From positions 3,826-67,825 of IMG/VR virus record IMGVR_UViG_2585427722_000007: a stretch of DNA of 64,000 nt; one strand, 5' to 3'. The stretch comes from a virus (lineage: Duplodnaviria > Caudoviricetes). The translations under genes were made by a program, and so were the position numbers. Within the stretch, counting starts at the first letter, position 1. Each line of letters begins with the position of its first letter. The notes beneath the pieces were generated by a model. It was not told where the DNA came from. It saw only the letters and a program-made list of their open reading frames with translations, and made no database searches. Below, in pieces: positions 3,410-57,600 of the stretch.

Positions 3410-4053
3410 GCAAACTCCTTGAATTGGATTGATCTGACGGCACCGATCATTCGGGCGAACCACATCGGGTTGCCGGAAACATCGACTTTGGCCGGAGCGT
3501 CGGTGTAGTCGACTTCATCCAGCGGGACGTCGAGGTTGGCGCGCAGCCAATACTCGCTACGCCCGTGCATGGACATGCCCAGCTTGGTCCGCAGCAGCAC
3601 CTGGGTTGCCAGCAACTTGGCTCTGCGCGCCGCAGATGACGCCGCTTTCGGGTTGGTGATAACGTCGAGGTCGATACCCTTGACGGAGGCCAGGTCGATC
3701 TTGCCGTCCGGGCCATACTTCAGGTATCCGCCGACACCGTTGAACACCACGCCGTCGATGGCGAAAGCCCGCTCTTTGCTTGGCCGGCGTCCATTGAACG
3801 AAGGTAAGGTACGGCTGCCGACATATTTGCCGGTGAACTCCATGATCCGCGCCAGCGTGGTGTTGGAGGTCCAGCCGGTGCATATCTGCATCGTGCCGTC
3901 TGGGTAGAAGCGCACGATGTCGGTGTCGAAGTGCCGAACCGCCAGATGATCGCCACGGTCCATAACCCGGGTATTGTTGCCAACCGGCTTGCCTACAGAC
4001 CGATTGCGCGCGGTCTTGAGTGCGTCTTCACAGCGCTGGTGGTTCCATGCCAT
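3406..4053 (-). CDS. hypothetical phage protein
   Basis: 215-aa ORF with AAGGAG RBS and a GWTSNTT motif. Confidence 0.75.
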   Translation of the reverse strand: MAWNHQRCEDALKTARNRSVGKPVGNNTRVMDRGDHLAVRHFDTDIVRFYPDGTMQICTGWTSNTTLARIMEFTGKYVGSRTLPSFNGRRPSKERAFAIDGVVFNGVGGYLKYGPDGKIDLASVKGIDLDVITNPKAASSAARRAKLLATQVLLRTKLGMSMHGRSEYWLRANLDVPLDEVDYTDAPAKVDVSGNPMWFARMIGAVRSIQFKEFA

Positions 4054-6944: not shown

Positions 6945-7742
6945 TCAAATCCCTTCTTGGCAGCGGTAAGATTGCCAGCCGCGGAAGTTCGCGTGCTGTA
7001 TGTCATTTTCAGCGTCGGCAAAGGCGACATGCTCGAACGGCGAGGCATGGCCGCAGTCCCTGAGCATGATAGCCAGCGCTATGTCCTTGTCGATGCTCGG
7101 TGCCGAACCGTCGTGATTCAGGTAGGAGACCCGGGCACAACGGGCCGCAGAAATTAGGCTGATGTCCTCTTCGGGCAGAGCATTTATTTCCTCGCCGGAG
7201 ATGTAGGGGGCATGCCCGATGCGCTCGATCGGCACCGAAGCGTCCATCGCTTCCTTCATCGCCCGTGCCAGTTCGTGGATATTCGGATCGGCAGCGGGGT
7301 GCAGTCGCAGCCTGAAGAAGTTATCCCAGGCAGTGGCGGTGACGATCGTATGCATCCATTGGAACGGTTCGAGGATGCGGTTGACGACCTGTTTGTGCAG
7401 GCCTAGGTTAGCCATAGGGCCGGCGATGTTGGCTGCCTGCCGCGCAGCCTCCGACCAGAGCTGCTTCGCGCTTTCAAGTTTGGTTCCGACCAGTTCCACA
7501 CCGGCCTGCATCCCCGGCTGATTGCTGCCCCAATGAATCGGTATGGCCGGGTCGTTGCGCACTTGTTCAATCATCTTGGCGACCGGGATGGCGCGGGACG
7601 ATGAGGCGTTGCGGGAAAATACGCGGTGGGTCATGAACTCGCTGTGAATGAAGCGCGGATAGACTAGCTGCAGCGTGGTCAGGCGCGCACCGGTCGGCGA
7701 CACGCTGTCGAGAACGACCTTGGCGGAAGTAGTAGTTTTCAT
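6945..7742 (-). CDS. thyX: FAD-dependent thymidylate synthase
   Basis: THRVFSRNASSSRAIP, FFRLR and HASPFEH motifs. Confidence 0.9.
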   Translation of the reverse strand: MKTTTSAKVVLDSVSPTGARLTTLQLVYPRFIHSEFMTHRVFSRNASSSRAIPVAKMIEQVRNDPAIPIHWGSNQPGMQAGVELVGTKLESAKQLWSEAARQAANIAGPMANLGLHKQVVNRILEPFQWMHTIVTATAWDNFFRLRLHPAADPNIHELARAMKEAMDASVPIERIGHAPYISGEEINALPEEDISLISAARCARVSYLNHDGSAPSIDKDIALAIMLRDCGHASPFEHVAFADAENDIQHANFRGWQSYRCQEGI

Positions 7743-9103
7743 GCCGCTTTCTCCTCCGCAAACAAGCTCAGTAAGTTTGTCATTTTTGAATCCTTCTCCA
7801 GTAATCGTGCGTAGACTTTCTGTTCGATCGTGCCCTCGGCAAGGATCACGATGATTTCGGTTTTTTCCTTCTGACCGGCGCGCGCCTGGCGCTTGTTGCC
7901 CTGGCTGAAGTGCTCCAGGTCGTAGGTCGGCGAGGCCCAGATCGTGGTCGAGCCGCGCGTCAAGGTCAGGCCATGCGCGGCGGACTTCGGGTGCGCGAAC
8001 ATCACGTCATAGAATCCGGCCTGGTAATGTTTCACCATGTCGGTGCGCTCGCGGTCGGAGGCGTTACCGTCCATCACGCAGTAGGTCAGTCCACGTTTCT
8101 CGGCCTGCTTGATCAGTTCGTCTCTTTGATGCTTCCAGAGGAAGAACACCAGAGGGTGCTTGCGGTCCTCGACCAGGTCGAGGACCAGCTCGTAACGGCC
8201 GGTGTCAACGACGTGATACGTGTCCTCGTTTTCATACACGGCGCCGGACGCGATCTGCAGTAGTTTGGTGGTGACGGCGGCGGCGTTGATGGCCGTTACC
8301 TTGGTATTGGCCTTGAGCGACATGATCTGGGTCTTCTCCATCTCCAGATAGGCCTTCTTCTGCTTGGCACTCAAGTGGTACTGCATCGTGTAGCTGTGGG
8401 TGGCAGGGATGTCGATGCAGTCCTCGAATTTGTGACGGATCGTAATGTCCGCGATCAGCCCGTAGATCGCTTCTTCCGAGCCGTCCTTGTCGACCCACTT
8501 GACCATGTTCGGCAGCGGCCCGACTTGCTCCGGCGCGCACACTGCGGCCCGGAAACCGAAGAACTGGCTGCCCAGGCGCTTGCCGTCGTCGAGGATTTGC
8601 ACCGGGTTCCAGATGTCGCAGATGGTGTTGCTGTTGGGCGTGCCGGACATCACGCTGCGATACCTGAAATATTTTCTGATCTTGTTGAGCGCCTTGGAGC
8701 GAGCGCTGGTGTGATGCTTAAAACTTGATACTTCGTCAACTATTAATGTGTCGAACTTCTTGAAGAAGGCCGGCTTCTGCTTCAGCAGCCAGGTGACGGC
8801 GTCGATATTGGTGATGTAGACGTCGGCGTCGGCGGCGAAGGCCTTCTCGCGGTTCTCCGCATACGCGACCGAGCAGCTGATCTGCGGCGCGAACTTGCCG
8901 AAGTCGTCTTCCCACGCGGAGCGCAGCAGGGACTTGGGGGCGATGACGATCGCGCAGCCACCGGACTTTTTGCGGCGCTTGGCAAAGGCCATGATCTGCA
9001 CAAATGTTTTTCCCGTACCTGGGTCGCTCATGTCGAAGATGATGTCGGACTTGTCCATGACCTTCAGGGAGAAGGTCTGGTGTTTCATCGGTTTGTAATC
9101 CAT
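7739..9103 (-). CDS. SNF2-family helicase
   Basis: DPGTGKT, IVDEVS, SGTP, AHGLTLT and Q..KRQAR.GQ motifs. Confidence 0.9.
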   Translation of the reverse strand: MDYKPMKHQTFSLKVMDKSDIIFDMSDPGTGKTFVQIMAFAKRRKKSGGCAIVIAPKSLLRSAWEDDFGKFAPQISCSVAYAENREKAFAADADVYITNIDAVTWLLKQKPAFFKKFDTLIVDEVSSFKHHTSARSKALNKIRKYFRYRSVMSGTPNSNTICDIWNPVQILDDGKRLGSQFFGFRAAVCAPEQVGPLPNMVKWVDKDGSEEAIYGLIADITIRHKFEDCIDIPATHSYTMQYHLSAKQKKAYLEMEKTQIMSLKANTKVTAINAAAVTTKLLQIASGAVYENEDTYHVVDTGRYELVLDLVEDRKHPLVFFLWKHQRDELIKQAEKRGLTYCVMDGNASDRERTDMVKHYQAGFYDVMFAHPKSAAHGLTLTRGSTTIWASPTYDLEHFSQGNKRQARAGQKEKTEIIVILAEGTIEQKVYARLLEKDSKMTNLLSLFAEEKAA

Positions 9104-9372
9104 CAATGCACCTCTCTTGGGCTGACGCGCGGTAACGTCGCGTTGATCCGGCACGACTCAACCAACGTGTCGTACATGTTCGGGGTTGCGAAGTCGGCGT
9201 GGGTTACGAATGACACCTGCATGCTGAATAACAGCACCGCGGGGTCAGTGAGTGGGTCTTTCTCGTATAGGCAAGATTCGATGACTGCGTTGTGTAAGCC
9301 CTGTGTCAGGATCAGTAAATCGGGCGACGGGTTGCCGACCGAGGCGAGGGCGGATGAGAAGCGGTTCATCAC
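9103..9372 (-). CDS. hypothetical protein
   Basis: 89-aa ORF coupled to both neighbours. Confidence 0.6.
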   Translation of the reverse strand: MMNRFSSALASVGNPSPDLLILTQGLHNAVIESCLYEKDPLTDPAVLLFSMQVSFVTHADFATPNMYDTLVESCRINATLPRVSPREVH

Positions 9373-10079
9373 ACGCCCCGTTCACAGTGGCCGGTGCCGC
9401 TGGGACCGTATGGGCACCACTTGCAATTGAAAATGTTCGGAGAAGCTGGGAACTCGGTGCATTCCGTCATCGCGAAGCCCTTCTTGGTGAAGTTGTGCTT
9501 GAATCGCAGTCCCTGCTGGCGGGTGAAGGTGTTCTGGGTCAGGTCATCGACGTCCAGGTACCAGAGTTCGGTGTGGATCAGTTCGAGCTTCGGGTAACGC
9601 AGAAAGGACACCAGCTGGTAGAGCTGGACCTGTTCGGCATGGCTGACTTCGTTGCCGAACTTCTTGCCGGATTTGTAGTCGATGATTACCGCTTCGTATT
9701 CAGACAGATGGACGATCGCGTCGAGTTTGAGGCGTAGCCAGGCTTCCTTGGCGCGCCACTCGACCGGCTCCCAGTTGCTATCCATGGCCCACTCGCCTTC
9801 GGTAGAGACCATGCCGTCTTTGTAGAGCTTCTGTAGAGAGTCGAACTCGGCTTGGAACTTGCCCATCTCGCGGCCGAACGGACCTTGCCCCTTGACGTAG
9901 TTCTCTGCTTCGTCATGGATGCGTGAGCCGCGATCATTGGCGTGCTCGGTCTTGCCGGGCGGTAGCGGGCGCTCCGGCTCCGGGATTTTCTGTCCGTACT
10001 GGAGTTGTGCTCGCAGCTTGCACTGGCCGAAGGTCTTGGCTTTGGAAATGCTCCACTGGGTGATCGGGATAATCTTCAT
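9369..10079 (-). CDS. PD-(D/E)XK exonuclease (RecB/Cas4-like)
   Basis: RGSRIH, KLDAI...IDYKSG, QVQLY and C-terminal CKWCP...C motifs. Confidence 0.9.
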   Translation of the reverse strand: MKIIPITQWSISKAKTFGQCKLRAQLQYGQKIPEPERPLPPGKTEHANDRGSRIHDEAENYVKGQGPFGREMGKFQAEFDSLQKLYKDGMVSTEGEWAMDSNWEPVEWRAKEAWLRLKLDAIVHLSEYEAVIIDYKSGKKFGNEVSHAEQVQLYQLVSFLRYPKLELIHTELWYLDVDDLTQNTFTRQQGLRFKHNFTKKGFAMTECTEFPASPNIFNCKWCPYGPSGTGHCERGV

Positions 10080-10107: not shown

Positions 10108-10818
10108 TTAGATTATCGACCCATGGGCGTCAAAAAGGCAATCATTTGCTTCAATTGCTTCGTCGACGCATTCATCACTGGTGAGCCAGTCGTGCTCTTT
10201 CTCCAGCTGGTTGTAAATCCAGTCGGCGAAGGAGGAGACATATTCATTCATCGCTTCTTCGATTTCTTCCGGGCAGGAGCCGGGTTCGACTTTGGTGCGG
10301 TAGCATCCGCGCTCGTCCCCGCTGATCATGATGCGGGAGTCCTGCAGGACTTCGTCCTGCTCCTCATCCTCATCCATCACATAGCCGGTCAGCCGCAGTG
10401 TGACCAGCCGCAGGGTGATCAGGTCGTACAGCGCCTCGCCCTCAGCAGCCAGAGAGAATAAACGATCGTCTGTGCAGCCTCGTCCGGTATATTCCCGCAG
10501 CCGGGTCACGCAGCCCTTGAGCTGGGTGATGTACAGATCGCCCGAATAACAGCAGCCATCGCCCTGACTCCAGAACCCGGAGAAGGAGATGTCGGGCTGC
10601 GTGTAGGACTTGCCGTTGTGTGGCCGGCTGTGCTGCAGCCCGACCTCGATGCCGATCAGCTTGCCAATCGTCACCGCATCTTCATAGACGAACTCCCACC
10701 ATTCATATTCCGGATCATGCTCGCGCCATTTATCTCTGGCTTTGTTCTTGGCAGCGTTATCCAGCTCGTCGAAGGTGAACTCGGTCTTCTCTTCGACTTC
10801 AGCAATGTCTTCACTCAT
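10108..10818 (-). CDS. acidic conserved phage protein carrying an internal copy of the helix motif
   Basis: FTFDEL..AK.KAR, FSGFWSQGDG and IY.QLEKEHDWLTSDE motifs; internal AAEGEALYDLITLRLVTLRLTG. Confidence 0.75.
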   Translation of the reverse strand: MSEDIAEVEEKTEFTFDELDNAAKNKARDKWREHDPEYEWWEFVYEDAVTIGKLIGIEVGLQHSRPHNGKSYTQPDISFSGFWSQGDGCCYSGDLYITQLKGCVTRLREYTGRGCTDDRLFSLAAEGEALYDLITLRLVTLRLTGYVMDEDEEQDEVLQDSRIMISGDERGCYRTKVEPGSCPEEIEEAMNEYVSSFADWIYNQLEKEHDWLTSDECVDEAIEANDCLFDAHGSII

Positions 10819-11094
10819 GTCTTTCTCCTGATTTAACTACCGCCGTCGCCGTGGCCGTCGCCGTCGCCGTCGCCGTCGCCGTAGCCGTGGCCGTGGCCGT
10901 AGCCGTGGCCGTGGCCGTGGCCGTGGCCGTAGCCGTGGCCGTGGCCGTCGCCGTCGCCGTAGCCGTGGCCGTGGCCGTGGCCGTAGCCGTGGCCGTGGCC
11001 GTCGCCGTAGCCGTCGCCGTGGCCGTCGAGGGTGATTAGACGTCCGTCGGTCAGGCCCAGCAGACGGCGGGTCAGTTTAAGGATGAGGTCCATT
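10816..11094. repeat. Direct-repeat cassette 1 (with 13926-14186) containing a hexamer tandem array
   Basis: Shared flanks catgtctttctcctgatttaa and ccgtcggtcaggcccagcagacggcgggtcagtttaaggatgaggtccatt. Confidence 0.95.
10833..11093 (-). CDS. (Gly-X)30 repeat protein, copy 1 (X = H/D/Y)
   Basis: 23-aa leader MDLILKLTRRLLGLTDGRLITLD followed by GGC-NAC hexamer repeats; paralogue at 13943. Confidence 0.75.
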   Translation of the reverse strand: MDLILKLTRRLLGLTDGRLITLDGHGDGYGDGHGHGYGHGHGHGYGDGDGHGHGYGHGHGHGHGYGHGHGYGDGDGDGDGHGDGGS

Positions 11095-11622
11095 CAGTTC
11101 TTCCGGTATCTCAACTTCATCACCGAGTTTCGATGCAACGTAGCAACGCATGGCGGCGATCAGGGGTGTGGGGCCTCGAAAAGAGCGGTCTTTGTGCCAT
11201 ACAATCGTTGCTCCAGACTTTCTACAAGTCATGGCGTAGTAAGTTCCGTGCGCTGCACTGTCGGGACGATGGTACTTGCGAAAAGAAATATCCTCACGCT
11301 CAATGAGCGGCCCACTTAACGCCCAGTCAGTTGAGTAGGGTAGGAGTACCGCTTTACTATTTACAGCGTCCCATCCGGGTTCGGTGTCGAGTGCCTTCGC
11401 CACCGCCCAATCAAGAGCAGCGCCAACCAATTCTGATGTTTTCGTTTTCATGATCTCTCCCCCAGAAGGTGCAAATAAGACAGCCTTTAAATCGCTGATG
11501 TTCTGCGCCTCTCTTACCTGTTTTCGTTGTTGTCTATTACGCAGAATTTCCTTGGCCTGCATGAGGCTACAGTCCTTCTCGGCTACTACATGCTCGATGT
11601 CTTCTCGGGTAATCGGGTTCAT
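11077..11622 (-). CDS. NinX/DUF2591-family protein with N-terminal extension
   Basis: ELVGAALDWAVAKA, YSTDWALSGPLIERE and GPTPLIAAMRCYVASKLG motifs. Confidence 0.8.
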   Translation of the reverse strand: MNPITREDIEHVVAEKDCSLMQAKEILRNRQQRKQVREAQNISDLKAVLFAPSGGEIMKTKTSELVGAALDWAVAKALDTEPGWDAVNSKAVLLPYSTDWALSGPLIEREDISFRKYHRPDSAAHGTYYAMTCRKSGATIVWHKDRSFRGPTPLIAAMRCYVASKLGDEVEIPEELNGPHP

Positions 11623-12722
11623 ACCTCAATCTCCACTGTTTCACCGAACGGCCCTTGCTGTGCGTTGGTGCAGCACCACAGAGTTGGGTAGTCCGGCACG
11701 TCGAAGTCAGTCGGGCCATACAAGTCTGTCAGGTAGACCAGACACACCGGCCGGATACTGTTCTCTTCAACCCAGTCGAATACCGGCTTGAACGCGGTGC
11801 CGCCGCCGCCGCATGCTTCCAGCTTGAATGGGTCGTGGCGGGCGAAGGTCTTGGTACCGGCGACTTGGGCGTCGCAGTAGACGACGTGGACGTTGGCCGG
11901 CAAGGTCTCGGCAATGATGGATTCGCACTCGGCGGAAAACGCATCGAGCGTGGTCTGGTCGATCGAGCCCGAGGTGTCGACCCCGATCACGATGTCGCCC
12001 ATGCTCTCGCTGTAGAGCGACGGCATGTAGACGCCATGCACCAGCATCGCCTTGTTCGGCTTGGTCCAGGCATAGTCGTCCTTGCTGCGCTCGGTGATGA
12101 AGCGGCGTAGTGCTTCCCTCCAGTCGACCTGAGGCTTCAGCAGGCCGTCGACGAAGCGCTCCAGCGCACCGGGCAGCTTGCCCATCATCTTGGCGGCGTT
12201 GGCGGCCTGGATCGTGGCGACTTTCCATTCGCGCGTGGCTTCTGTCTGTGCTGCCGGATCGGGCTCGCCAGGCTGCATGTCATCCAGCGGAGCGCCGTGG
12301 CCGTTATTGCCGTCTTTGTCAGGTTCCGGCAGCAGGGTGTAGATGTGGTCAGCGGACATGTCCTTGAATGCCGGGTTGAGCAGGGCGGTACCTTCGAACT
12401 TGAAGCCGACGTCTTCCAGCAACCGATTGATGGCATAGTCCGCGGCTTGGTTCCAGCGCGAGTGGGTGCGTTCGCCCAGGCGAGACATGTGGTCCAGCAC
12501 ACAGTGCATGACCTCATGGGCGATGACCGCTTTGGTCAAGCCGGCGCTGATGCCGTTGACAAAGGCCGGGTTGTAGCTGATGGTCTTGCCGTCGACCGCC
12601 ATGGTCTTGACGGAGGCATCTTCGGCCAGCTTCAGACGTAGAGCCAGTGCGCCGAAGAAGGGCTGGTCGAGGATCAGCGTGGCTCGCGCGCGGGTGAGTT
12701 TGGTTGCGGCTTCTTGGTTCAT
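11619..12722 (-). CDS. DUF2201-type metallopeptidase plus VWA domain protein
   Basis: HEVMH zincin motif, WNQAADYAIN, MIDAS DTSGS, GGGT and YLTDLYG. Confidence 0.9.
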   Translation of the reverse strand: MNQEAATKLTRARATLILDQPFFGALALRLKLAEDASVKTMAVDGKTISYNPAFVNGISAGLTKAVIAHEVMHCVLDHMSRLGERTHSRWNQAADYAINRLLEDVGFKFEGTALLNPAFKDMSADHIYTLLPEPDKDGNNGHGAPLDDMQPGEPDPAAQTEATREWKVATIQAANAAKMMGKLPGALERFVDGLLKPQVDWREALRRFITERSKDDYAWTKPNKAMLVHGVYMPSLYSESMGDIVIGVDTSGSIDQTTLDAFSAECESIIAETLPANVHVVYCDAQVAGTKTFARHDPFKLEACGGGGTAFKPVFDWVEENSIRPVCLVYLTDLYGPTDFDVPDYPTLWCCTNAQQGPFGETVEIEV

Positions 12723-12877
12723 GATTCTTTTCCTGTCCTTACATAGACCCAGGCTGCGACCCATGCGCCACCTTCGTCGTTAGGGCGGACTGCGGCGTTG
12801 TCATCAATCTCGATGTCGTTGTCTGAGCCGTCTGCCCAGAACTCGATCGCGAGCTGCCTGATTTCGTAGTTGTTCAT
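12719..12877 (-). CDS. small acidic protein (52 aa)
   Basis: MNNYEIRQLA...DIEIDDNA...GAWVAAWVYV; overlaps both neighbours by 4 nt. Confidence 0.7.
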   Translation of the reverse strand: MNNYEIRQLAIEFWADGSDNDIEIDDNAAVRPNDEGGAWVAAWVYVRTGKES

Positions 12878-13095
12878 TTCGTCATCCTTATTTCCAAAGC
12901 CTTCATTACCAGCTCCACCGCCATCGGCGGTCCGTCGGCGGCGTGCCCCTCTATCCGCTTGATCCACCAGAGCTGGGTATCGGTGTCCCAGGAGTCGAAC
13001 TTGTTTTTGTTCGAACTCCATCTGGTGTCATCAAGCCATAAGTTTCGCAGCGCCAAGCGGTATAACTGGACCTTGACGAGGGCTTCTCCGCCCAT
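12874..13095 (-). CDS. small protein with shared C-terminal helix motif
   Basis: Ends AADGPPMAVELVMKALEIRMTK*. Confidence 0.7.
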   Translation of the reverse strand: MGGEALVKVQLYRLALRNLWLDDTRWSSNKNKFDSWDTDTQLWWIKRIEGHAADGPPMAVELVMKALEIRMTK

Positions 13096-13928
13096 CACAG
13101 ATGTGTGGAGATAGTACTCAGGATGCTTGCTGCTTCCTGCGCCACGCGAGCGCGGGCCTGATACGACCGGCGCAGGCAACCGGGCGGTTCGTGCAGGTCG
13201 CGCATCACGCGGATGCAGACGTCATTGAGTTCCTTGTTGTTGGTGATGTTCAGCTTGGGCAGCATTAGGGCCAGCTCGGTGACATTCTCGACGATACTGT
13301 CGCGAAAGACTGGCTTGTCCTTGAGCATCGTGGTCTCCAGCTTCGAGACCACATCAAATAGGCGTTGCCAGCACTCCCGGACTGCGCCGGCCTGGCGCTC
13401 GGCTACTGTGGCGTCGATACTAGCCTTGATCTCTTCCAGCGCTTCGTTGCCGACATCGACCCGGAAGTCCTTGGCGTCCGGTACCGGCAAGAAACTGACG
13501 TTCAGCCCAAAGCGTGACTGGATGTCGTCAGCCGGTGGATAGTCCTGGGCATCGTACATGGTACCCAAGCGCTGGCGGGCAGCGGACACCAGCTGTGGAT
13601 AGTCCACGACGAATATTTTGGTCAGCGCCTCGTTGTCGCTTTTGAATTGGCGCATTGCTGCGGTGTAATCCATGTACGCCTTGGCCGGCAGCAGGCGGTC
13701 GCCGTTGTCGCCCCACGGCAGCGTCATCGTGTAGTGGTAGTCGCGGATGCGACCGGCGTGCTTGGCCAGCGGGTCGAGTGCGGACTTGTCGATCAGTAGC
13801 TTGTTGTAACGTCCGCCGTCCTGCGCGCTATGGGTGGCATCAACCTCGAGTGAGACTGCGCGGTCATGTTTGCGGGCCGTCCACTGGCGAATGTTGAGGT
13901 TCGCGATCATCGCTCGGTTCTGCAGCAT
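13095..13928 (-). CDS. conserved helical protein (DUF3150-like)
   Basis: W.ARK.D, YNKLL, TLPW.D.G.RLLP and FRDS.V.N motifs. The family is recalled as a neighbour of AAA/VWA pairs. Confidence 0.65.
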   Translation of the reverse strand: MLQNRAMIANLNIRQWTARKHDRAVSLEVDATHSAQDGGRYNKLLIDKSALDPLAKHAGRIRDYHYTMTLPWGDNGDRLLPAKAYMDYTAAMRQFKSDNEALTKIFVVDYPQLVSAARQRLGTMYDAQDYPPADDIQSRFGLNVSFLPVPDAKDFRVDVGNEALEEIKASIDATVAERQAGAVRECWQRLFDVVSKLETTMLKDKPVFRDSIVENVTELALMLPKLNITNNKELNDVCIRVMRDLHEPPGCLRRSYQARARVAQEAASILSTISTHL

Positions 13929-14186
13929 GTCTTTCTCCTGATTTAATTACCACCGTAGCCGTCGCCGTAGCCGTAGCCGTCGCCGTAGCCGTGGCCGTGG
14001 CCGGAGCCGTGGCCGGAGCCGTCGCCGTAGCCGTAGCCGTAGCCGTGGCCGTCGCCGTAGCCGTCGCCGTAGCCGAAGCCGTCGCCGTAGCCGTCGCCGT
14101 CGCCGTCGCCGGAGCCGTCCAGAGTCATCAGCCGGCCGTCGGTCAGGCCCAGCAGACGGCGGGTCAGTTTAAGGATGAGGTCCATT
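13926..14186. repeat. Direct-repeat cassette 2
   Basis: Flanks match 10816-11094, about 3.1 kb away. Confidence 0.95.
13943..14185 (-). CDS. (Gly-X)27 repeat protein, copy 2 (X = Y/D/H/S/F)
   Basis: Same 23-aa leader as copy 1 (one substitution) but a different repeat sequence. Confidence 0.75.
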   Translation of the reverse strand: MDLILKLTRRLLGLTDGRLMTLDGSGDGDGDGYGDGFGYGDGYGDGHGYGYGYGDGSGHGSGHGHGYGDGYGYGDGYGGN

Positions 14187-14475
14187 TGGACTGGTTGCAG
14201 TCAACGGTGAACAGCACAGCTTTCAGCTGCGGGCGCACAGTGCAGGAGGCGTCGAGCACGGTGTCTGCGACTGGGCCATCCTTGAGTTGACCGAGGCCCT
14301 CGGAGGTGCCCCACTTACGAATGCAGCGGGCTTTGTCGATGTACATTTCAGTTTCGGTACGAGTGACGTAACCGACGAAGACGAAGCCGCGGTCGAGGGC
14401 GACAATTTGGATTTGCGGGGTAGTAGGGCTCAAGTTTTCGGCTTGTTGGACTATCGGTGTTTTCTTGGTTGCCAT
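14164..14475 (-). CDS. DUF6948-like small beta protein
   Basis: IVALDRGFVFVG...ARCIRKWGTSEGLGQLKDGP; overlaps the start of the Gly-X repeat gene. Confidence 0.7.
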   Translation of the reverse strand: MATKKTPIVQQAENLSPTTPQIQIVALDRGFVFVGYVTRTETEMYIDKARCIRKWGTSEGLGQLKDGPVADTVLDASCTVRPQLKAVLFTVDCNQSKWTSSLN

Positions 14476-14480
14476 ATTCT

Positions 14481-14825
14481 TTATCCTTTAGAGGTTGTAG
14501 CCATTCTTCTTTTGAGGGTTCCGCGAGTATCCGTAGAGCGGTCTTTGTGTTTTTCGATCTGGGTCTGAGTGAATAGCCAACCTTCCTGAATGGCAAGTTG
14601 CAACGCTTCGATGATTTTTTCGGCATGCTCGACGGTATCTACAGCCAGATGATTCTTACCGGCGAGAGTTTTTAAGTAGCATCCGAAGTGGTTTTCATGG
14701 TGATCACAGCCTTGTTCGAGCTGGCCGGCAGCTTCCCAGGAGTTTCCTTTATAGAACTGAATTACGGGTTGCCCAGACGTGTTGTCCGCCGGCGTTTCGG
14801 ATATGTTGATTACGAACTGTTTCAT
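14481..14825 (-). CDS. hypothetical protein
   Basis: 114-aa ORF with AAGGA RBS. Confidence 0.65.
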   Translation of the reverse strand: MKQFVINISETPADNTSGQPVIQFYKGNSWEAAGQLEQGCDHHENHFGCYLKTLAGKNHLAVDTVEHAEKIIEALQLAIQEGWLFTQTQIEKHKDRSTDTRGTLKRRMATTSKG

Positions 14826-14830
14826 GTTCT

Positions 14831-15064
14831 TTATCCTTTAAGTCTGAGTTCAATAAATCTCTGCATAATGGCCTGGGCCAGCGGGTCGCCGTCATCGGCC
14901 ATGTGTTTGATCTTGACCATGCCGGAGGCTTCGAGCTTCATCGCGTTGGTAATTTTGTAGCACTGTTCGACTGTTGAGGCCCAGGCGCGTTGCTGTTCGG
15001 TAGAGTCAAAGACGATATGGCCGCGGGATGCTTGCCACTTGCGGTTCTCTTCAGACTCGTTCAT
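14831..15064 (-). CDS. small protein with shared C-terminal helix motif
   Basis: Ends ADDGDPLAQAIMQRFIELRLKG*. Confidence 0.75.
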   Translation of the reverse strand: MNESEENRKWQASRGHIVFDSTEQQRAWASTVEQCYKITNAMKLEASGMVKIKHMADDGDPLAQAIMQRFIELRLKG

Positions 15065-15246
15065 CCTGTCATCCTCCTCTCTACGTACATCGCCCAGACC
15101 TTCTCGGCTCTGGGTATGCCGGCTTTGGCTTCTTCCAGGCAGCGCTTGTAGCCGTTCTGGTTATCGAAGTAATACTCCAGGCCCTCTGCTTTGGGGTCTA
15201 CGTACAGGGCGTACCAGGTCGTCCGCTCTTTGACAGACCAGGTCAT
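15061..15246 (-). CDS. small protein with shared C-terminal helix motif
   Basis: Ends AKAGIPRAEKVWAMYVERRMTG*. Confidence 0.75.
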   Translation of the reverse strand: MTWSVKERTTWYALYVDPKAEGLEYYFDNQNGYKRCLEEAKAGIPRAEKVWAMYVERRMTG

Positions 15247-15602
15247 CGTGTCAGCCTGTACTTCAAAGCGAATGCGACGATCTTCAGATTTGTCGGGTCC
15301 GTGCTGTTCATTACGTCTGCAATCCAGCGCTCGGGGTTTCTATAGAAGAGACTCAGCTTAAAGTGGTCTCTGCTTGGGCCTACACTATCGATAATCGCCC
15401 GCACCCAGCACAACTGCTCTGGTGTCTCGCGTAGCTTGGGCACATCTTTCGGAACGAACCCGCGCGCTTCGAGTTCGTCTCGCAGCCTGGAGTTGTGCTG
15501 ACCGTTGCGGGCGGTCATCATCCATGAGTAGTACAAGTGAACGCTGTCCATCCAGATGATCTCCAACCGCTGACCGTCCAAGGTCCTCCAGATCGCGCTC
15601 AC
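15243..15602 (-). CDS. protein with shared C-terminal helix motif
   Basis: Ends MNSTDPTNLKIVAFALKYRLTR*. Confidence 0.7.
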   Translation of the reverse strand: MSAIWRTLDGQRLEIIWMDSVHLYYSWMMTARNGQHNSRLRDELEARGFVPKDVPKLRETPEQLCWVRAIIDSVGPSRDHFKLSLFYRNPERWIADVMNSTDPTNLKIVAFALKYRLTR

Positions 15603-15603
15603 G

Positions 15604-16584
15604 TCACACCCAGACCGCGCTATTCGTTATGCCCCACTTGATGAACGCCTTGGTCTCGCTGATGCTTCTGTCCTGGCGTGTGGCGTCGCGCACGGTGACG
15701 ACCTGGAACTCGATCGGCATCCGGCCCACGTACTGCATCATGCGGTCGAAGGTGTCCTTCTTGACCTTGGCGCCGAGCGCCGAACTCAGGGCGTACAGCG
15801 TGGCCGGCGCGTCGGGGATCGCTACCTTGTCCGGGTTCAGCATGATCTCATCGATTGATGGTAGATCGCGGTAGACTCGTAAGAACGCAGAGAACTCGGC
15901 GGCCGCGCCTTCGCCAACCGTACCTTTCAGCACCTCAAACTCGGTGTCGCGGTCCAGGCCGGAGTCGATGACCTGCGACGCGAAGGCCCAGCTGCGCGGA
16001 GTAGGAAAGGCGCGCTGGGTGTAATCCGGCGCGTGCAGCAGATTGGTGCGGAAGCGGATGAAGCTGATCAGCTCGGTCGGCATGGCGTTGTCAAGCGCCC
16101 ACTCCGACCAGTCGTCCAGGCTGACCTCGATGTCGAGGTGGACGAAGCGGTTGCTTAGAGCGGCCGGCATACGATTGACGACAGAGCGGTCAGACTCACG
16201 ATTGCCGGCCGCAAGAATGCTCCAGCCGGCTGGCAGGGTGTAGTCGCCGATCTTGCCGGTCAGGGTCAGCTGCATCGCGGCAGCCTGGGTGGCTGGCGCG
16301 GCCGAATTGAGCTCGTCGAGAAACAGGATGCCCTTGCCCTTGGTCGGCAGTTCGCCGTCGCGATAGAACTGCATGGTCTTGGATTTGGCGTCCGGCATCG
16401 GAAAGCCTTTGATGTCGGTCGGGTCGCGCAGGGCCATGCGGAAGTCGACCAGTTGCAGCTTGTCTTCCTTGGCGATCGATTCGACCAGATCGGACTTGCC
16501 GACGCCGGGAGGACCCCAGAGAAACACGGCACGTTTTTGCGCCATGAGGAAGCGCAGGGCGGGTTTGAGTTGAGATGGGCGCAT
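15604..16584 (-). CDS. MoxR/dynein-related AAA+ ATPase
   Basis: Walker A GPPGVGKS, Walker B LFLDELN, AAGNR, ALSNRF and TPRSW. Confidence 0.92.
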   Translation of the reverse strand: MRPSQLKPALRFLMAQKRAVFLWGPPGVGKSDLVESIAKEDKLQLVDFRMALRDPTDIKGFPMPDAKSKTMQFYRDGELPTKGKGILFLDELNSAAPATQAAAMQLTLTGKIGDYTLPAGWSILAAGNRESDRSVVNRMPAALSNRFVHLDIEVSLDDWSEWALDNAMPTELISFIRFRTNLLHAPDYTQRAFPTPRSWAFASQVIDSGLDRDTEFEVLKGTVGEGAAAEFSAFLRVYRDLPSIDEIMLNPDKVAIPDAPATLYALSSALGAKVKKDTFDRMMQYVGRMPIEFQVVTVRDATRQDRSISETKAFIKWGITNSAVWV

Positions 16585-52304: not shown

Positions 52305-54623
52305 ATGAACAACATCCAGAAAGCATTCAAGGCGAAAGCACAAATGTCCGGCCTGCGTATGGCAGACGGCGGCTATTTCGATCCGTCCCTGATGCAGCCC
52401 CCATCTTCTTTATCGTCGGCCCTTCAGGGGTTGGCAAGTACTGCTACTGAGTCTATCCGCACTAATACAGGTCTTCAGGGGCAGATCGCTGCTCGTAACG
52501 TGGCATCCGCACCCACCCCCATGCAGCAACCCCAAATGCCCCAAATGCCCCAAGCCTTCGCCAACGGCGGCAATGTCCAAAACATCCAAAATATAGGCCT
52601 GCGCCAGCAAGGTACTGTCCGTGGCCCCGGTACCGGTACCAGCGACAGCGTGCCGGCCATGCTGTCGAAGGGCGAGTACGTACTGCCGGCAGACACCGTG
52701 CGCCACATCGGCAAGGAGAACCTGGACCAGCTCAAGGACGCTACGCACGCACCGGTGAACAACGGCCTGCGCGGAGGCTACGCTGACGGCGGCATGCCGG
52801 ACAGACGGACCATGCCCGCTTGGGATGCTGCCAAACAGCTGGGGCAGAGCCTTCGCGGCACCTTCCCTGACCTGCGCACGCAGGGCAAAATCAATGAGGA
52901 CAACGCTTACAGCGCAGTGCAGGGCGGGACTGCCACGCCAGCGCAGCAGTCGTTGCGCGACAACTCCCAGAAAATCCTCAATAGCCCCGGCGCGCAGACC
53001 ATGCCGTGGGATGTGATCGCCCCCGTTACCGGGCTCGGCCTGCTCGGCGCGCGTGGCGCAGGCGCTGTTGCAGACGCCGGCCCCGGTGTCGTCTCCAAGA
53101 TCGGCGGCGCGGCATCAGACATCGCCTCCGGGGTTGGTAACGCCGCGTCATCTGCGTGGAACGGTGTGCGGGGCATGTTCTCCAAAGCGCCGGCGGCAGG
53201 CGAGTCGGTAGCGGCTGGTGCCACCCCCACCGCGTCGGCGGCCGGCCCTACATTATCTGCCTCCCGGGAACTGGCGCCGTATGCGGCTCCCGCCGAAGCT
53301 GCCACGACGCCGTTGGGGGTGCGCCAGGCGACGGGGCTGGCCGCGAGGGCAGTAGGGCCGCAGTCGGTGGCCGCATCCGGCTCCCTGATGTCGCAGACGC
53401 ACGCGTCAGCGCCCGATTCTGTCCCAACCGCACCGGCAGCCGCGTCCGCTGCGACCCCGATGACCCCTCAGCAGAAGTGGCTGGTCGAGAACGGCGTGAA
53501 CATGGACTCCCAGAACTCCTTGCCGACCAGCCTGCGTGGCAACGGAGGTCCGAACCCCGGCACCGGTATCAACCTCGACTTCAGCAAGCGCTCACCTATC
53601 AGAACTGTCGAGGGCGGGCAGGCTGTGAACCTCGGCATCTTTGGCGGCAACGCCAACATCTACGGCTCCTCCTCTAAGCTCGATGGAGGCAAGATTGACA
53701 CGTTCACCGGCATAGGCACCCCCGATGGTGGCAAAGGCGACCAGTTGCAGCGTGAAATGACGGCGCAGAAGATCGCGGACATGAACCGCACCAGTGACCT
53801 GCAGCGCGAGGTGCATGGCCTGCGGATGGCGGACAACGATGCCGGCACGATGGGTTTCGGCAGCGGCGGTGGGTCACGCTATACCGGCGTAGCGGCGGTG
53901 AACGCGCGCAATGCAGCCGAGGCCAACGCGGTCAATGAACGTAACAGCCTGCGCTCCAACGACACCGCGCGCTGGCAGGGAGAACGTCAGCTCCAGCAGA
54001 ACCTGCGCCAGATGCAGTGGGACCGCAACAAGTTCGGCGTCGAGCAGGGCAATAAGGACCGTGAGTTCAACCAGAAGCAGGACGAAACCGATTTCGGGCA
54101 ACGCGACAAAGCGACGAAGGACCTCAATGATCAGCTCGGCACGATGTTCGCAGGGCCTGACGGTAAACCAGACACCGCTCGCGTAGGTGCTGCCAGTCAG
54201 GCTATCCACGACGAGCTGGGTGCGCGAATCCAGGACTTGGCAAAGGTACCTGCTGGCAGCCAGCACTATGCTGAGGCGCAAGCGACAATGAAGACTCTGG
54301 GCCGTAAGGGCATCGCCGCACTCGGGCCTGATGATCTCCGGCAATTAATGTCGCAGGCTGCGATTAAAGACCGCGTCATGCAGACACACTCCATTCTTCC
54401 CGGCGGTTCTGTCCCGGTCGATTCACGGCTGAGCGGATACGCAATCGACCCAAAGACGGCTCCTGGATCAAACATCTTCGGTAGCGACACCGTGACACTG
54501 GGCAACGGGTCAAAAGTCCGCGCCAATAACCTGCGATACACCGAACCGGCGAATGCATTCTGGCCTGATTTCAGGCATGTTAATTCCACTCAGTTTAGCG
54601 CGGGCCTGAAAGGCGAAAAATAA
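52305..54623 (+). CDS. internal virion/ejection protein
   Basis: MADGG/FANGG/YADGG motifs and GPGTGTSDSVPAMLSKGEYV. Confidence 0.75.
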   Translation: MNNIQKAFKAKAQMSGLRMADGGYFDPSLMQPPSSLSSALQGLASTATESIRTNTGLQGQIAARNVASAPTPMQQPQMPQMPQAFANGGNVQNIQNIGLRQQGTVRGPGTGTSDSVPAMLSKGEYVLPADTVRHIGKENLDQLKDATHAPVNNGLRGGYADGGMPDRRTMPAWDAAKQLGQSLRGTFPDLRTQGKINEDNAYSAVQGGTATPAQQSLRDNSQKILNSPGAQTMPWDVIAPVTGLGLLGARGAGAVADAGPGVVSKIGGAASDIASGVGNAASSAWNGVRGMFSKAPAAGESVAAGATPTASAAGPTLSASRELAPYAAPAEAATTPLGVRQATGLAARAVGPQSVAASGSLMSQTHASAPDSVPTAPAAASAATPMTPQQKWLVENGVNMDSQNSLPTSLRGNGGPNPGTGINLDFSKRSPIRTVEGGQAVNLGIFGGNANIYGSSSKLDGGKIDTFTGIGTPDGGKGDQLQREMTAQKIADMNRTSDLQREVHGLRMADNDAGTMGFGSGGGSRYTGVAAVNARNAAEANAVNERNSLRSNDTARWQGERQLQQNLRQMQWDRNKFGVEQGNKDREFNQKQDETDFGQRDKATKDLNDQLGTMFAGPDGKPDTARVGAASQAIHDELGARIQDLAKVPAGSQHYAEAQATMKTLGRKGIAALGPDDLRQLMSQAAIKDRVMQTHSILPGGSVPVDSRLSGYAIDPKTAPGSNIFGSDTVTLGNGSKVRANNLRYTEPANAFWPDFRHVNSTQFSAGLKGEK

Positions 54624-57600
54624 TGGGCGTACTTGACAGAATCAGCGAACTGACTGCGGACAACACCCCTGACACGGGCGTTCTACCGAGAGATACCCCG
54701 TCCGCTTTCTCCAAAGGTCTGCGCGGCGGCATGGAAGACGTTGCAGGCCAGACCCACGCTCTGCTCGGGCAGGGTGGTGAGCTGGTCGGGGCAAATGACT
54801 TCGCCACGGAACAGCGCGCCAAGTCGCTCCTCAACCAGCAGGAGGCCGAGCGTCTGACCGCCGACACCCCCACTTGGGAAAAAGTACGTACCTTGAAAGA
54901 TGGCTGGGACTACGGCACCGGCCTGCTGGGGCGCTCGCTGCCAGGGCTGGCTACTGGTATCGCCGGGGCCACGCTGATGCCCGGCAAGGGTGCGCTGGCC
55001 GGTATTGCCGGCATGACTGCTGCCACCGCACCGTCCACCATCGGCGCGCAGTTCGAAGCGCAGCAGAACGATCCGGCGCAGGCCAAGCGGGACGTGATGA
55101 CGCGCACGCTGACCGGCGTCGGCGCGGGTACCGCAGAAGCGGCGGCGATGTCCGTGGTGCCACAGGTAGTCGGCGGCAAGCTATTCGGTAAGGCCGCTAC
55201 CGGCGCTGTGGAGAAGGCGGCGATGCCGTTCAGCAAGGCCGTGATGGACAACGTCCCAGAGGCGGTACTCGGCAATGCCGCCGCCGGCAACGTGTCGGCA
55301 CGCATCGGTCAGGCTGCAGCCAGCCACCTGAACCCCGATCGTGACATGTCACACGACACCGCAGAGCAGAACGACGCGATGATCAGCGGCGCCGTAATGG
55401 GTGCGCCGTTCGCGGTCGCCGGCATCGCCGGCAGCATGCGTGGTAAGAAGGCTGGCGGTCCGGCTTCAGAGCCGCTGCCAAAAGGCACAGATGCCGAGAA
55501 GGCCAACGGTGTGTCGATCGACGCAGCGCCGAAATCGTTCGCCGACAAGGTGGCTGATCTCGGCACACCGCTACGCTCCGAGCCGACGACCGGTGAGGAG
55601 CATGTTCAGGCTCGTGGCGGGATCGTCGAGGGGGACACCCCGGATACGGCCGCCGTCAAGGACGCACAGGGTGGTGCCGAGGCTGCCGCCAAAGCACAGC
55701 GCACCATGCAGAAGCTGGCGGAAGACCCTACCGCCTCCCGGTTCCAGGACGAACTGAGCAAGATCGACCCGACTACCAGTGCCGGCCAGATGCGCGTGAG
55801 CGATATCAATGCGCAACACTTCGAGGCGCGGCAGACAGCGAAAAGTGTGGCAGATGCGAACGCTGCGCTCGACGCACTCAGAGCGGAAGACACAGCGGGC
55901 GCCAGCTTCTCGAAAGACGCCTCCGGTGCCGATGCCGGCATTTACGAGCTGATGGATTCACCTGAGTGGAACTACCTTGACGACGACACCAAGCAAAATG
56001 CTGTCACGATGACGCGCAGGCTGATTGTTGCCGGCGAGCAGGGCAGTGAACTGCCGGCCACCGCGATGCGCGCGACCATCGACGTGCTGGGCAAGGACAC
56101 CGTATCGCGCCTGTCCAAAATCTACGATGCGATGGGTTCGAAGGACCCGGCCAAGATCGAGTCGTTCTACAAGGCGCTGACCAAGATTTCCGAGGTCCAG
56201 AAGCACGACGATAGTCTGTTGACGGTGGTGCGCAACGCGCTGCCTGAACACATGATCGATACCGTGCGCACGCCGCAGATCAAGGAGTTCGTAAAGCAGA
56301 TGCAGGACCTGACCGGCGAGCGCATGTTCAAGGATATGACGCCGGCCGAGCAGGCGGTCAAGAAAGGGCAGATCAACGCCAAGCTGACCGAAGTGTTCGG
56401 CGACAAGGCCGATGCAGTCAACGAGGCATTCGCCAAGCATGCACAAGGTGAGGCCGATCTGGTCGGCACCACGCCGCCGGACCGGACTGACGCAGCTAAA
56501 GCCAACGCGTGGGAGAACACCGACGAAAACGAGTTCTCATACCGCAGAGAAGAAGCCAACCCACTTGAAACAGCGCAGGGCACTGAGACCGCATACTATG
56601 GTGGCGGAAAGAAAGGCGACACCTATATCGAGCACCGGGACGTTGCGCGCGCCAAGTACGGTAATGCGGAGACTATGTATGAGAGGCTGATGCGGCAGGC
56701 GCAGGAGGAACACCCTACAGCCGACGTATCGTGGGTCAGCGCCAAGGAACACGCGAAGCGCACTGGTATCCTTCCCGAACAGCTAAACGAGATGACCAAA
56801 GGCCGTCCCGATGAGCACGGTATGATCGCCGTCGAGAAGATGGCCGACCGCGAAGCATTCGGGTGGAAGGATATAGACGCAATGCGCCTTAGCGGCAAGG
56901 ACAAGAACGGCAAGAAGAAATCATCGCATTACGAATCCAGCAGCCGGATCGATACCGGTACCGATGCGCACCCCGGGCCGATTCTCGACGCCATGCGGGT
57001 CGCTTCGCACATGATGAAGAAACTACCCAAGTCGGATGTCGATGAGCAGGGCGGTATGCATCAGTTGGCGCGCGCGTTCAAGGAAGGTATCGCTGCAGTG
57101 TCGGACCACATGTCAGAGCTGCTGCACGTACCGGACGAGACAGTGGTGGCGCGGCGCGGTGGCAAGGACATTACCTGGGGCGAGTTGCAGAAAGTCCAGA
57201 ACGACACCGTGAAGGAAGACTTCACCGGCTCCGACAGCACTACCAGCGAAATGCGCGCTAAGGTTTCCGATTTCGCCCTACGTGTAGAGAAATCCGAGAA
57301 AGCCATCGCCGCTTTAAAATCGATAGCTAAAAAGCGTGAACTGTCCGAGTCGCAGCAGAAGTCGCTTGAATACCATGAGCGCCAAATCAAGTTCTATTCC
57401 GAAGAGGTGATTCCGAACCTGGAGTCGGCTATCGAGAAGCGCGGCGATCGTGCGGCGTTCGCCGAGGGTAAGGAGCTTGGCAACGACTACGGAACCGGAC
57501 GTGACTCCGGTGCTGGCATCAACTTGGCTAAGGAGCGGTCGCGTGTAGCCCAGCGCGACGAGCTGCGATACGGCACCCTGCTCGATAAGTTGGGTGGCAA

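Follow-up and report, generated by a model that had tools for sequence, protein, structure and literature searches.

A C-terminal helical hairpin shared by small proteins encoded between the core genes of a phage MoxR–DUF3150–VWA module

Why would small phage proteins that differ in their front halves all end in the same way? This question is raised by a run of genes at positions 10108–16584 of a viral DNA stretch of 64,000 nucleotides (Duplodnaviria; Caudoviricetes; positions 3,826 to 67,825 of IMG/VR record IMGVR_UViG_2585427722_000007), which was analysed at its full length and is referred to here as the window. The run encodes an AAA+ ATPase of the MoxR type, a DUF3150-like protein and a protein with an HExxH motif and a VWA domain, and among them a set of very small proteins; genes and their products are named below by their lowest coordinate (Table 1). 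An initial annotation had noted that four of the small proteins (12874, 14831, 15061 and 15243) end in a similar motif behind unrelated N-termini, and had suggested that this motif is a docking tag. We found that the likeness of these four C-termini is not due to chance, and that the motif proteins are a lineage-specific, small, all-helical accessory family set between the three core genes of the module. Judging from sequence, the motif, a C-terminal α-hairpin, may be a contact module that joins the small proteins to a shared partner in a MoxR–DUF3150–VWA machine, a reading to which we tentatively assign a probability of roughly 0.4.

The last 22 residues of the four proteins read exactly as first described. 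Counted back from the C-terminus, P(−17), R(−4), M/L(−3) and hydrophobic residues at −7, −8, −11 and −12 are present in all four, and A(−22), G(−19), A(−15) and E(−6) in three. Ungapped BLOSUM62 comparison of the four segments in pairs gave scores of 39, 35, 24, 23, 13 and 12, against a null distribution with a mean of −20 and a standard deviation of 10, in which a score of at least 35 occurred at a rate of 2.5 × 10^−6 (400,000 random pairs of C-termini from open reading frames (ORFs) of at least 150 amino acids). We also scored C-termini with a leave-one-family-out position-specific scoring matrix (PSSM) with its register fixed at the C-terminus, which gave 26.5 for 12874, 17.3 for 14831, 17.3 for 15061 and 13.1 for 15243; none of 28,424 background C-termini, taken from the ORFs of a whole bacterial genome, reached any of these scores, and no other C-terminus in the window scored above 6.4. 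It could be argued that amphipathic helices merely happen to look alike, given that the motif is short and helical and that a weaker test, with three-sequence leave-one-out hidden Markov models (HMMs) in free register, ranked the members 9th, 25th, 434th and 1,488th among 69,848 six-frame segments. Such an argument has to face the pair null and the PSSM result, as well as the strictly C-terminal position of unanchored matches, the enrichment in related loci and the confinement to the module described below. We therefore regard a chance likeness as barely credible; it is refuted for the four C-terminal copies, and is still the best account of an internal segment that had been proposed as a fifth copy, to which we return.

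We next considered related phages, using 80 viral loci (L031–L110; DUF3150 identity 77–34%) from 285 found by alignment of 28 DUF3150 homologues. Setting aside the four loci of the phage on which the PSSM was trained leaves 76 independent loci; the loci are akin to one another, and counts across them are descriptive rather than independent trials. Among the C-termini of all ORFs in the 80 loci, 36 matched the PSSM at a score of at least 10, and 33 of these fell within the ATPase-to-VWA span on the coding strand, a span that makes up 365 kb of the 1,224 kb searched (30% of bases; each locus includes at most 10 kb of flank on either side). Without the training phage, 23 of 26 matches lay inside the module; approximately 3.8 matches in all would be expected from the background rate. 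These results uphold the proposed tie between the motif and the MoxR/VWA-peptidase/DUF3150 module. The initial annotation had also called for a check of enrichment at C-termini, and an unanchored profile search of 1.84 billion representative proteins returned five matches at E ≤ 1 × 10^−3, all at the extreme C-terminus. Four of the five were on module-bearing contigs, and two were new members of the 12874 family. The four-copy observation thus holds beyond the window and extends to a sub-clade of uncultured phages: a homologue of 15243 with the same N-terminus is present in L036, orthologues of 14831 in L014, L048 and P0003 retain the motif positions, and a full-length HMM of the 12874 family also brought to light neighbours whose tails are weaker, among them runs of three adjacent motif genes downstream of the DUF3150 gene in L035 and L070/71. 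The motif is rare in loci at a DUF3150 identity of approximately 41% or less. Relatives of the DUF3150 protein and the ATPase number in the hundreds to thousands with graded identity, whereas the motif proteins are near-orphans. Searches of phages with the 14831 and 12874 proteins by tblastn gave nothing significant, a word-indexed homologue search with 14831 found the protein itself and one 79% relative only, P0008 as a search seed found no relative, and scans of Pfam, PHROGs, NCBIfam and PADLOC yielded no named family for the motif proteins scanned. As a separate observation, Myxococcus phage Mx1 (L016, 5229–5558) encodes a hypothetical protein of 109 amino acids in which the first half of the motif (A-D-K-G-D-P-x-A-Q-A-I..) appears near the C-terminus; the R-L/M tail is missing, and there is no MoxR gene within 6 kb.

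The ends of the motif genes also carry signals at the level of DNA, and it is possible to propose that the C-termini are Shine–Dalgarno and overlapping start signals spread by recombination at gene junctions, the likeness of the peptides being incidental. Of 27 copies, 16 have AGG as the codon for R(−4); the others have CGA (three copies), AGA, CGG and CGT (two each), CGC (one) and, in one copy, the lysine codon AAG. Within the window AGG encodes three of the four R(−4) residues, placed where the Shine–Dalgarno site of the next overlapping gene must be, and the tail codons of the 15061 gene, AGG AGG ATG ACA GGA, are also the Shine–Dalgarno site of the next gene. The string GGMTGACNNNATGA is present at the ends of three motif genes only (12874–12887, 15061–15074 and 15243–15256), three occurrences against 0.13 expected in the window for a pattern that was derived from these same sites. 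Another junction, AAAGGATAAAGAAYATG, is common to the 14831 gene and the motif-less 14481 gene (14823–14839 and 14473–14489, respectively). L028 has the same 14-nucleotide junction at two successive genes, the second giving R-M-T-K on a protein whose tail otherwise scores 3.8, and the 18-nucleotide junction CTGAGGATGACGACGTGA is present three times in L048. At 10001–10462 of L048 a DUF3150 ORF ends after 153 amino acids with a motif-like tail (..LKLRMMK), with the VWA gene soon after; this looks like a deletion that preserved the coupling junction. Because AGG and the junction strings double as Shine–Dalgarno and start signals of the next gene, the last four or so residues (R-M-T-x-stop) are partly dictated by translational coupling.

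Translational coupling, however, accounts for only the last four to five codons. A PSSM confined to positions −22 to −5, which leaves out the junction-encoded tail, still gave 26 matches at a score of at least 10 against 5.6 expected, and 12 against 1.4 at a score of at least 12 (15,757 ORF C-termini in the 76 loci). R(−4) and L/M(−3) are also kept with CGT, CGA and CGG codons where the Shine–Dalgarno site is elsewhere or absent, and R(−4) is likewise kept with CGC and AGA where that site is elsewhere. Between families, identity at codon positions 1, 2 and 3 was 0.34, 0.42 and 0.34, compared with 0.29, 0.26 and 0.29 in a permuted control (305 pairs), so that the excess is highest at position 2 and lowest at position 3. 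The varied arginine codons and the excess at position 2 bear out the claim that the motif is a real protein-level module. As the sole cause of the likeness, coupling is refuted by the −22 to −5 enrichment together with the codon-position pattern, and we consider the by-product explanation very unlikely. A DNA repeat was ruled out as an explanation, as synonymous sites differ.

To compare the two parts of the motif proteins, we took the sequence upstream of the last 28 residues as the front part and clustered 28 motif proteins by BLASTP. The front parts fell into 13 clusters at E ≤ 1 × 10^−3 and nine at E ≤ 0.1, whereas the last 28 residues placed 21 of the 28 proteins in one cluster at the stricter threshold and 25 at the looser one. 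An hhalign comparison of two families aligned the last 26 columns only (E = 3.4 × 10^−4). With 13 clusters among 28 proteins, the description of the motif as sitting on sequence-unrelated front halves stands. The number of motif genes per phage ranges from one to seven, with four in the window, three in L014, seven in L048, three in L035 and three in L070/71. In L048 the ATPase gene is followed by six tandem motif genes, and there is also an orthologue of the 14831 gene; four of the six are full-length paralogues whose tails resemble, by eye, that of 15061, and the front part of 15061 is a singleton at E ≤ 1 × 10^−3 that joins the L048 paralogues only at E ≤ 0.1. The family appears to have grown by tandem duplication with replacement or rapid divergence of the front half, and a turnover in copy number of this kind is typical of accessory or interaction genes.

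The motif proteins are about 60–120 amino acids long and share a C-terminal module of about 22–28 residues by sequence, or about 26–30 residues taken as an α-hairpin. Helix A ends in A-x-x-G, and the x-P that comes next begins helix B, a helix with a wide hydrophobic face and an almost invariant arginine (−4), after which comes leucine or methionine (−3). AlphaFold2 modelling of the 12874 protein from an eight-sequence alignment gave a mean predicted local distance difference test (pLDDT) score of 94.5 and a predicted template modelling (TM) score of 0.82, with three of five models above 94. The model is a compact arrangement of four helices (residues 2–22, 24–35, 38–54 and 57–72) of which the motif forms the last two, with G(−19) and P(−17) at the turn and the first turn of helix B. 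As the motif lies within the fold, the hairpin would be a part of the fold and not a floppy tag. Among 13 diverse members of one family, G(−19) never varies and both P(−17) and R(−4) are retained in at least 90%, and the terminal glycine of some copies would fit a helix cap. A fold search with the model found no PDB entry at E ≤ 0.001 (the best was RbcX, E = 3, TM scores 0.57/0.40) and none in BFVD (best E = 2.3), and the ESM Atlas gave generic helical neighbours only, with no usable feature match.

The structure bears on the chief rival to the contact-module reading, which is that the proteins are simply diverged paralogues: the hairpin would be the conserved core of a fast-evolving, tandem-duplicated family with no common partner, and its location would reflect the site of duplication. 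The core of a helix bundle would be expected to conserve hydrophobic positions, and the motif helices do lie inside a compact fold; four of the six L048 tandem genes are full-length paralogues, several front clusters merge into a group of 17 at E ≤ 0.1, and the family is patchily present among module-bearing phages. This explanation is harder to reconcile with front parts that form 13 clusters without detectable similarity at E ≤ 1 × 10^−3 while their tails remain similar, or with a profile comparison that aligns nothing but those last 26 columns. Moreover, the best-conserved single position across families is a polar one, R(−4), and strong matches number 33 inside the module against 3 outside it, despite the long flanks that were searched. 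On balance we find the paralogue explanation possible but doubtful.

If the hairpin contacts a partner, that partner would most probably belong to the core module. The ATPase exceeded the Pfam cut-offs for AAA (33.7 bits; cut-off 21.2), AAA_3 (28.8; 27) and AAA_5 (28.7; 22) and matched phrog_1297 at E = 2 × 10^−97; its relatives are annotated as MoxR-like ATPases, and 7,925 of 8,000 scored candidates were homologous at E ≤ 1 × 10^−20. It has a VWA partner in the same run, namely 11619, which matched DUF2201_N (E = 1 × 10^−49, 169.8 bits) and DUF2201 (E = 1 × 10^−26, 93.8 bits), both above the Pfam cut-off. The HExxH motif (H69/E70/H73) and the DxSxS motif of the metal-ion-dependent adhesion site (MIDAS; D249/S251/S253) are invariant in all 18 aligned VWA sequences, and from these sequence features the core partners look functional. 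The match of 13095 to Pfam DUF3150 (PF11348) fell below the cut-off (E = 4 × 10^−4, 20.1 bits against 24.9), and the protein has 710 homologues at E ≤ 1 × 10^−5, several of which, at 46–60% identity, carry PF11348 in precomputed annotation; a 32%-identical protein of cyanophage MinM2 is annotated as DUF3150. The gene context given by the initial annotation is thus correct, with all three genes in one run and the Pfam match of the DUF3150-like protein below cut-off. By tblastn, the ATPase was found in 69 and the VWA/peptidase gene in 78 of the 80 DUF3150-anchored loci, and the three genes therefore form a conserved triad, which is spread over a large clade of uncultured phages with contigs of roughly 60–70 kb. 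Among 60 other related bacterial genomes, six had the VWA protein, always at 41% identity or less. PADLOC gave P-loop-level matches only for the ATPase (best E = 1.2 × 10^−4, over 35 residues) and none for six other proteins, and NCBIfam likewise gave no names for the proteins scanned.

On the contact-module reading, small proteins that can stand in for one another would all use the hairpin, a common protein–protein contact module, to bind a single shared partner, most probably one of the components of the MoxR–DUF3150–VWA machine. The variable front halves would supply differing specificities, as clients, regulators or adaptors, and the stretch for the last four residues would also provide the ribosome-binding site and start region for the gene downstream. 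Overlapping stop/start junctions link the genes into a chain, and the small proteins would therefore be made together with the core proteins. Several points weigh against this reading. Only 13 of the 76 independent loci have at least one strong in-module copy, and the 12874 family (full-length HMM, E ≤ 1 × 10^−6) is present in only 17 of 80. In many phages the three core genes abut with no small genes between them, and four distant loci, those of the three N4-like phages Pantoea G19, Vibrio VBP47 and Salmonella SP-058 and of cyanophage MinM2, have MoxR and VWA genes and no motif copy. A sliding PSSM found no hairpin in the core proteins, the best scores being at chance level (2.4 in the ATPase, 4.1 in the DUF3150 protein and 5.2 in the VWA protein). 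With motif helices 3 and 4 packed in the four-helix 12874 fold, their conservation could reflect the fold core only, and the single-sequence model of 15243 was poor and unreliable (pLDDT 44). The kinship of the loci makes the cross-locus counts non-independent, and the PSSM background came from bacterial rather than phage genes. Taken together, the patchy presence, the lack of a hairpin in the core proteins and the place of the motif inside the 12874 fold count against a simple free 'tag', as does a tail whose sequence is partly fixed by the translation signals (ribosome-binding site and start) of the gene downstream. As the motif is absent from many module-bearing phages, these are accessory proteins that the machine does not need.

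That the machine works without them in many phages would also suit a different partner, a host protein, in which case the small proteins would be stand-alone factors for host takeover or anti-defence that simply happen to lie in an early or middle operon. Small, fast-turnover, lineage-restricted phage genes are typical of host-interaction factors, and the motif genes have this small size, turnover and restriction; the Mx1 protein with the front half of the motif is encoded far from any MoxR gene. A host partner would not lead one to expect the strict confinement to the module, on its coding strand and with translational coupling, or the lack of any other copy in the 64-kb window, and we think it quite unlikely. 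A bolder version of the contact-module reading is that the triad is a programmable phage machine into which cassette-like small proteins plug by the hairpin, their front halves targeting different host or defence proteins, with retargeting by gene duplication and a swap of the front half while the hairpin and junction are kept. We regard this extension as speculative and, as a whole, unlikely.

Among known systems, the closest concept is that of the adaptor domains of bacterial MoxR–vWA ternary systems. As outlined in the study that describes them, these combine a MoxR ATPase and a vWA protein with a conserved third component in conflict systems whose variable proteins are proposed to connect to the core by way of small α-helical effector-associated adaptor domains; as a further likeness, the vWA component in some cases carries a fused peptidase domain (Kaur, Burroughs, Iyer, Aravind, eLife 2020, PMC7159879). 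They differ in that they serve the cellular defence of multicellular bacteria and have VMAP/iSTAND as their third component (PMC7159879), which is unrelated to DUF3150. Here, by contrast, phages carry the module, and the variable proteins are very small, with the shared part at the C-terminus. The adaptor domains of ternary systems also reportedly occur on both a core protein and effectors, whereas no core protein here carries the hairpin, and we do not count it among them. CbbQ–CbbO is a MoxR/VWA chaperone pair. In RavA–ViaA and NorQ–NorD, an AAA+ MoxR ATPase is likewise found beside a VWA protein with an intact MIDAS, and such pairs are described as remodelling targets through the VWA partner (PMC9976466, PMC13036017, PMC9489729). 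Pairs of the RavA–ViaA type, as described there, differ in lacking a DUF3150 partner, an HExxH domain in the VWA protein and a family of small proteins that end alike.

The turn of the motif (..A-A-x-x-G, x-P-x-A-Q/x) resembles the junction between repeats of Sel1-like (SLR/TPR-like) proteins, and the family profile touched five successive repeats of PDB entry 6onw, without significance (E = 0.48). Membership of Sel1 (PF08238) was rejected: none of 13 members matched at E ≤ 1, and comparison by hhalign with a bona fide Sel1 protein of six repeats from the host genome gave probabilities of 1.4% and 0.4%. Each motif protein has one hairpin, which forms only the last two of the four helices of the model, and no tandem array. 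Ubiquitin-like and Pup-like C-terminal tags end in Gly-Gly or Gly-Gly-Gln/Glu, with a ligase or E1-like gene nearby. The tails of the motif proteins end variously (TK, KG, TG, TR, TT, GG, KA and others), and the model is helical, not a β-grasp. The module of cyanophage MinM2 and a Planktothrix phage (OQ594354 and relatives) has the same order of MoxR, a small gene, DUF3150, three small paralogues and VWA. The three paralogues (111–115 amino acids; L020, Synechococcus phage MinM2, 8878–9904) differ in sequence and C-termini and do not match the PSSM (best score 4.5); they appear, from sequence, to be a separate lineage-specific expansion at the same position. Full-text searches, which covered one literature library, found no functional study of the triad or of the motif.

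Two further claims about the motif were not sustained. The segment at 10384–10449, inside the 10108 protein and proposed as a fifth copy, was not among the 16 best matches to an HMM made from eight of the C-terminal copies, and its PSSM score of 10.4 was equalled or beaten by three unrelated segments among the sliding 22-residue segments of the window. It aligns to an ordinary conserved helix–strand segment of phrog_5162 homologues in Caulobacter, Pseudomonas and Acinetobacter phages, and no MoxR gene was found in the flanks examined of the phages that carry these homologues. We treat the segment as a look-alike and not as a supported copy of the motif. Full-length homologues of the phrog_5162-family protein are present in 38 phage records (Caulobacter, Acinetobacter, Pseudomonas and others), and one from an Acinetobacter phage is annotated 'RNA polymerase binding protein'. 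The weaker echo of the motif claimed for the start of the Gly-X proteins is likewise not supported. These proteins are present in 5 of the 80 loci only, and 12 motif-bearing loci lack them. Their leader was accordingly rejected as a partner of the motif, with no co-occurrence beyond the closest relatives. The two Gly/Asp/Tyr/His-rich proteins are themselves close copies, 85% identical in DNA over 279 nucleotides, with long Ala-Val ORFs on the opposite strand; the closest relatives (the L014-type phage and L048) have three to four copies, and the other 75 loci have none.

The window is part of a 136.6-kb contig within a 3.38-Mb bacterial assembly, and the surroundings are phage-like, with minus-strand replication genes up to approximately 24 kb, after which come structural genes on the plus strand. 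The run at 10108–16584 (Table 1) is a single series of close-packed minus-strand genes in which the majority of stops abut or overlap the following start. The start of the 12874 gene is most likely the ATG at 13095, which overlaps the DUF3150 stop, and not 13179. A megablast search of phages with the region gave no match, and contig C1 was considered as a tandem duplicate and rejected. Beside the module on the minus strand are a 236-amino-acid ORF with a cysteine-rich C-terminus (9369–10079), a candidate Cas4-like nuclease, and a 471-amino-acid ORF (7739–9154), a candidate SNF2-type helicase, each with an orthologue in the same place in L014. On the plus strand, an ORF of 2,290 amino acids (54623–61495) closes the structural gene block.

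Table 1. Genes of the module run, in the direction of transcription (aa, amino acids)
Positions	Strand	Feature	Remarks
15604–16584	−	MoxR-type AAA+ ATPase, 326 aa, first module gene	Pfam and phrog_1297
15243–15602	−	Motif protein, 119 aa, GTG start 1 base past ATPase stop	Motif 15246–15311; stop overlaps next start (ATGA)
15061–15246	−	Motif protein, 61 aa	Motif 15064–15129
14831–15064	−	Motif protein, 77 aa	Motif 14834–14899
14481–14825	−	Small protein, 114 aa, without motif	Best sliding PSSM score −0.5
14164–14475	−	Small protein, 103 aa	Weak DUF6948 match; kept in L014 and L048
13943–14185	−	Gly/Asp/Tyr/His-rich repeat protein, 80 aa, conserved 23-aa N-terminal leader	
13095–13928	−	DUF3150-like protein, 277 aa, conserved third module gene	
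12874–13095	−	Motif protein, 73 aa, founder of most widespread family	Motif 12877–12942
12719–12877	−	Small protein, 52 aa, without motif, translationally coupled at both ends	
11619–12722	−	HExxH metallopeptidase-like and VWA protein (DUF2201_N and DUF2201), likely start 12722	
11077–11622	−	181-aa protein, no motif by sliding PSSM	
10833–11093	−	Second Gly-rich repeat protein, 86 aa; leader 22/23 identical to first	
10108–10818	−	phrog_5162-family protein, 236 aa, holding internal look-alike at 10384–10449	

The ends of the motif genes illustrate how a single stretch of DNA can serve twice, closing one protein domain while also supplying the ribosome-binding site and start for the gene that follows, which calls for caution in hunting for motifs. 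The MoxR–DUF3150–VWA triad is common in uncultured phages, with a DUF3150 relative in 285 viral loci and 710 homologues at the protein level, and a module-confined family with a contact-like hairpin provides a first concrete experimental handle on it. The hairpin could be used as bait in looking for whatever the machine binds, and the variable halves may reveal what the machine acts on.

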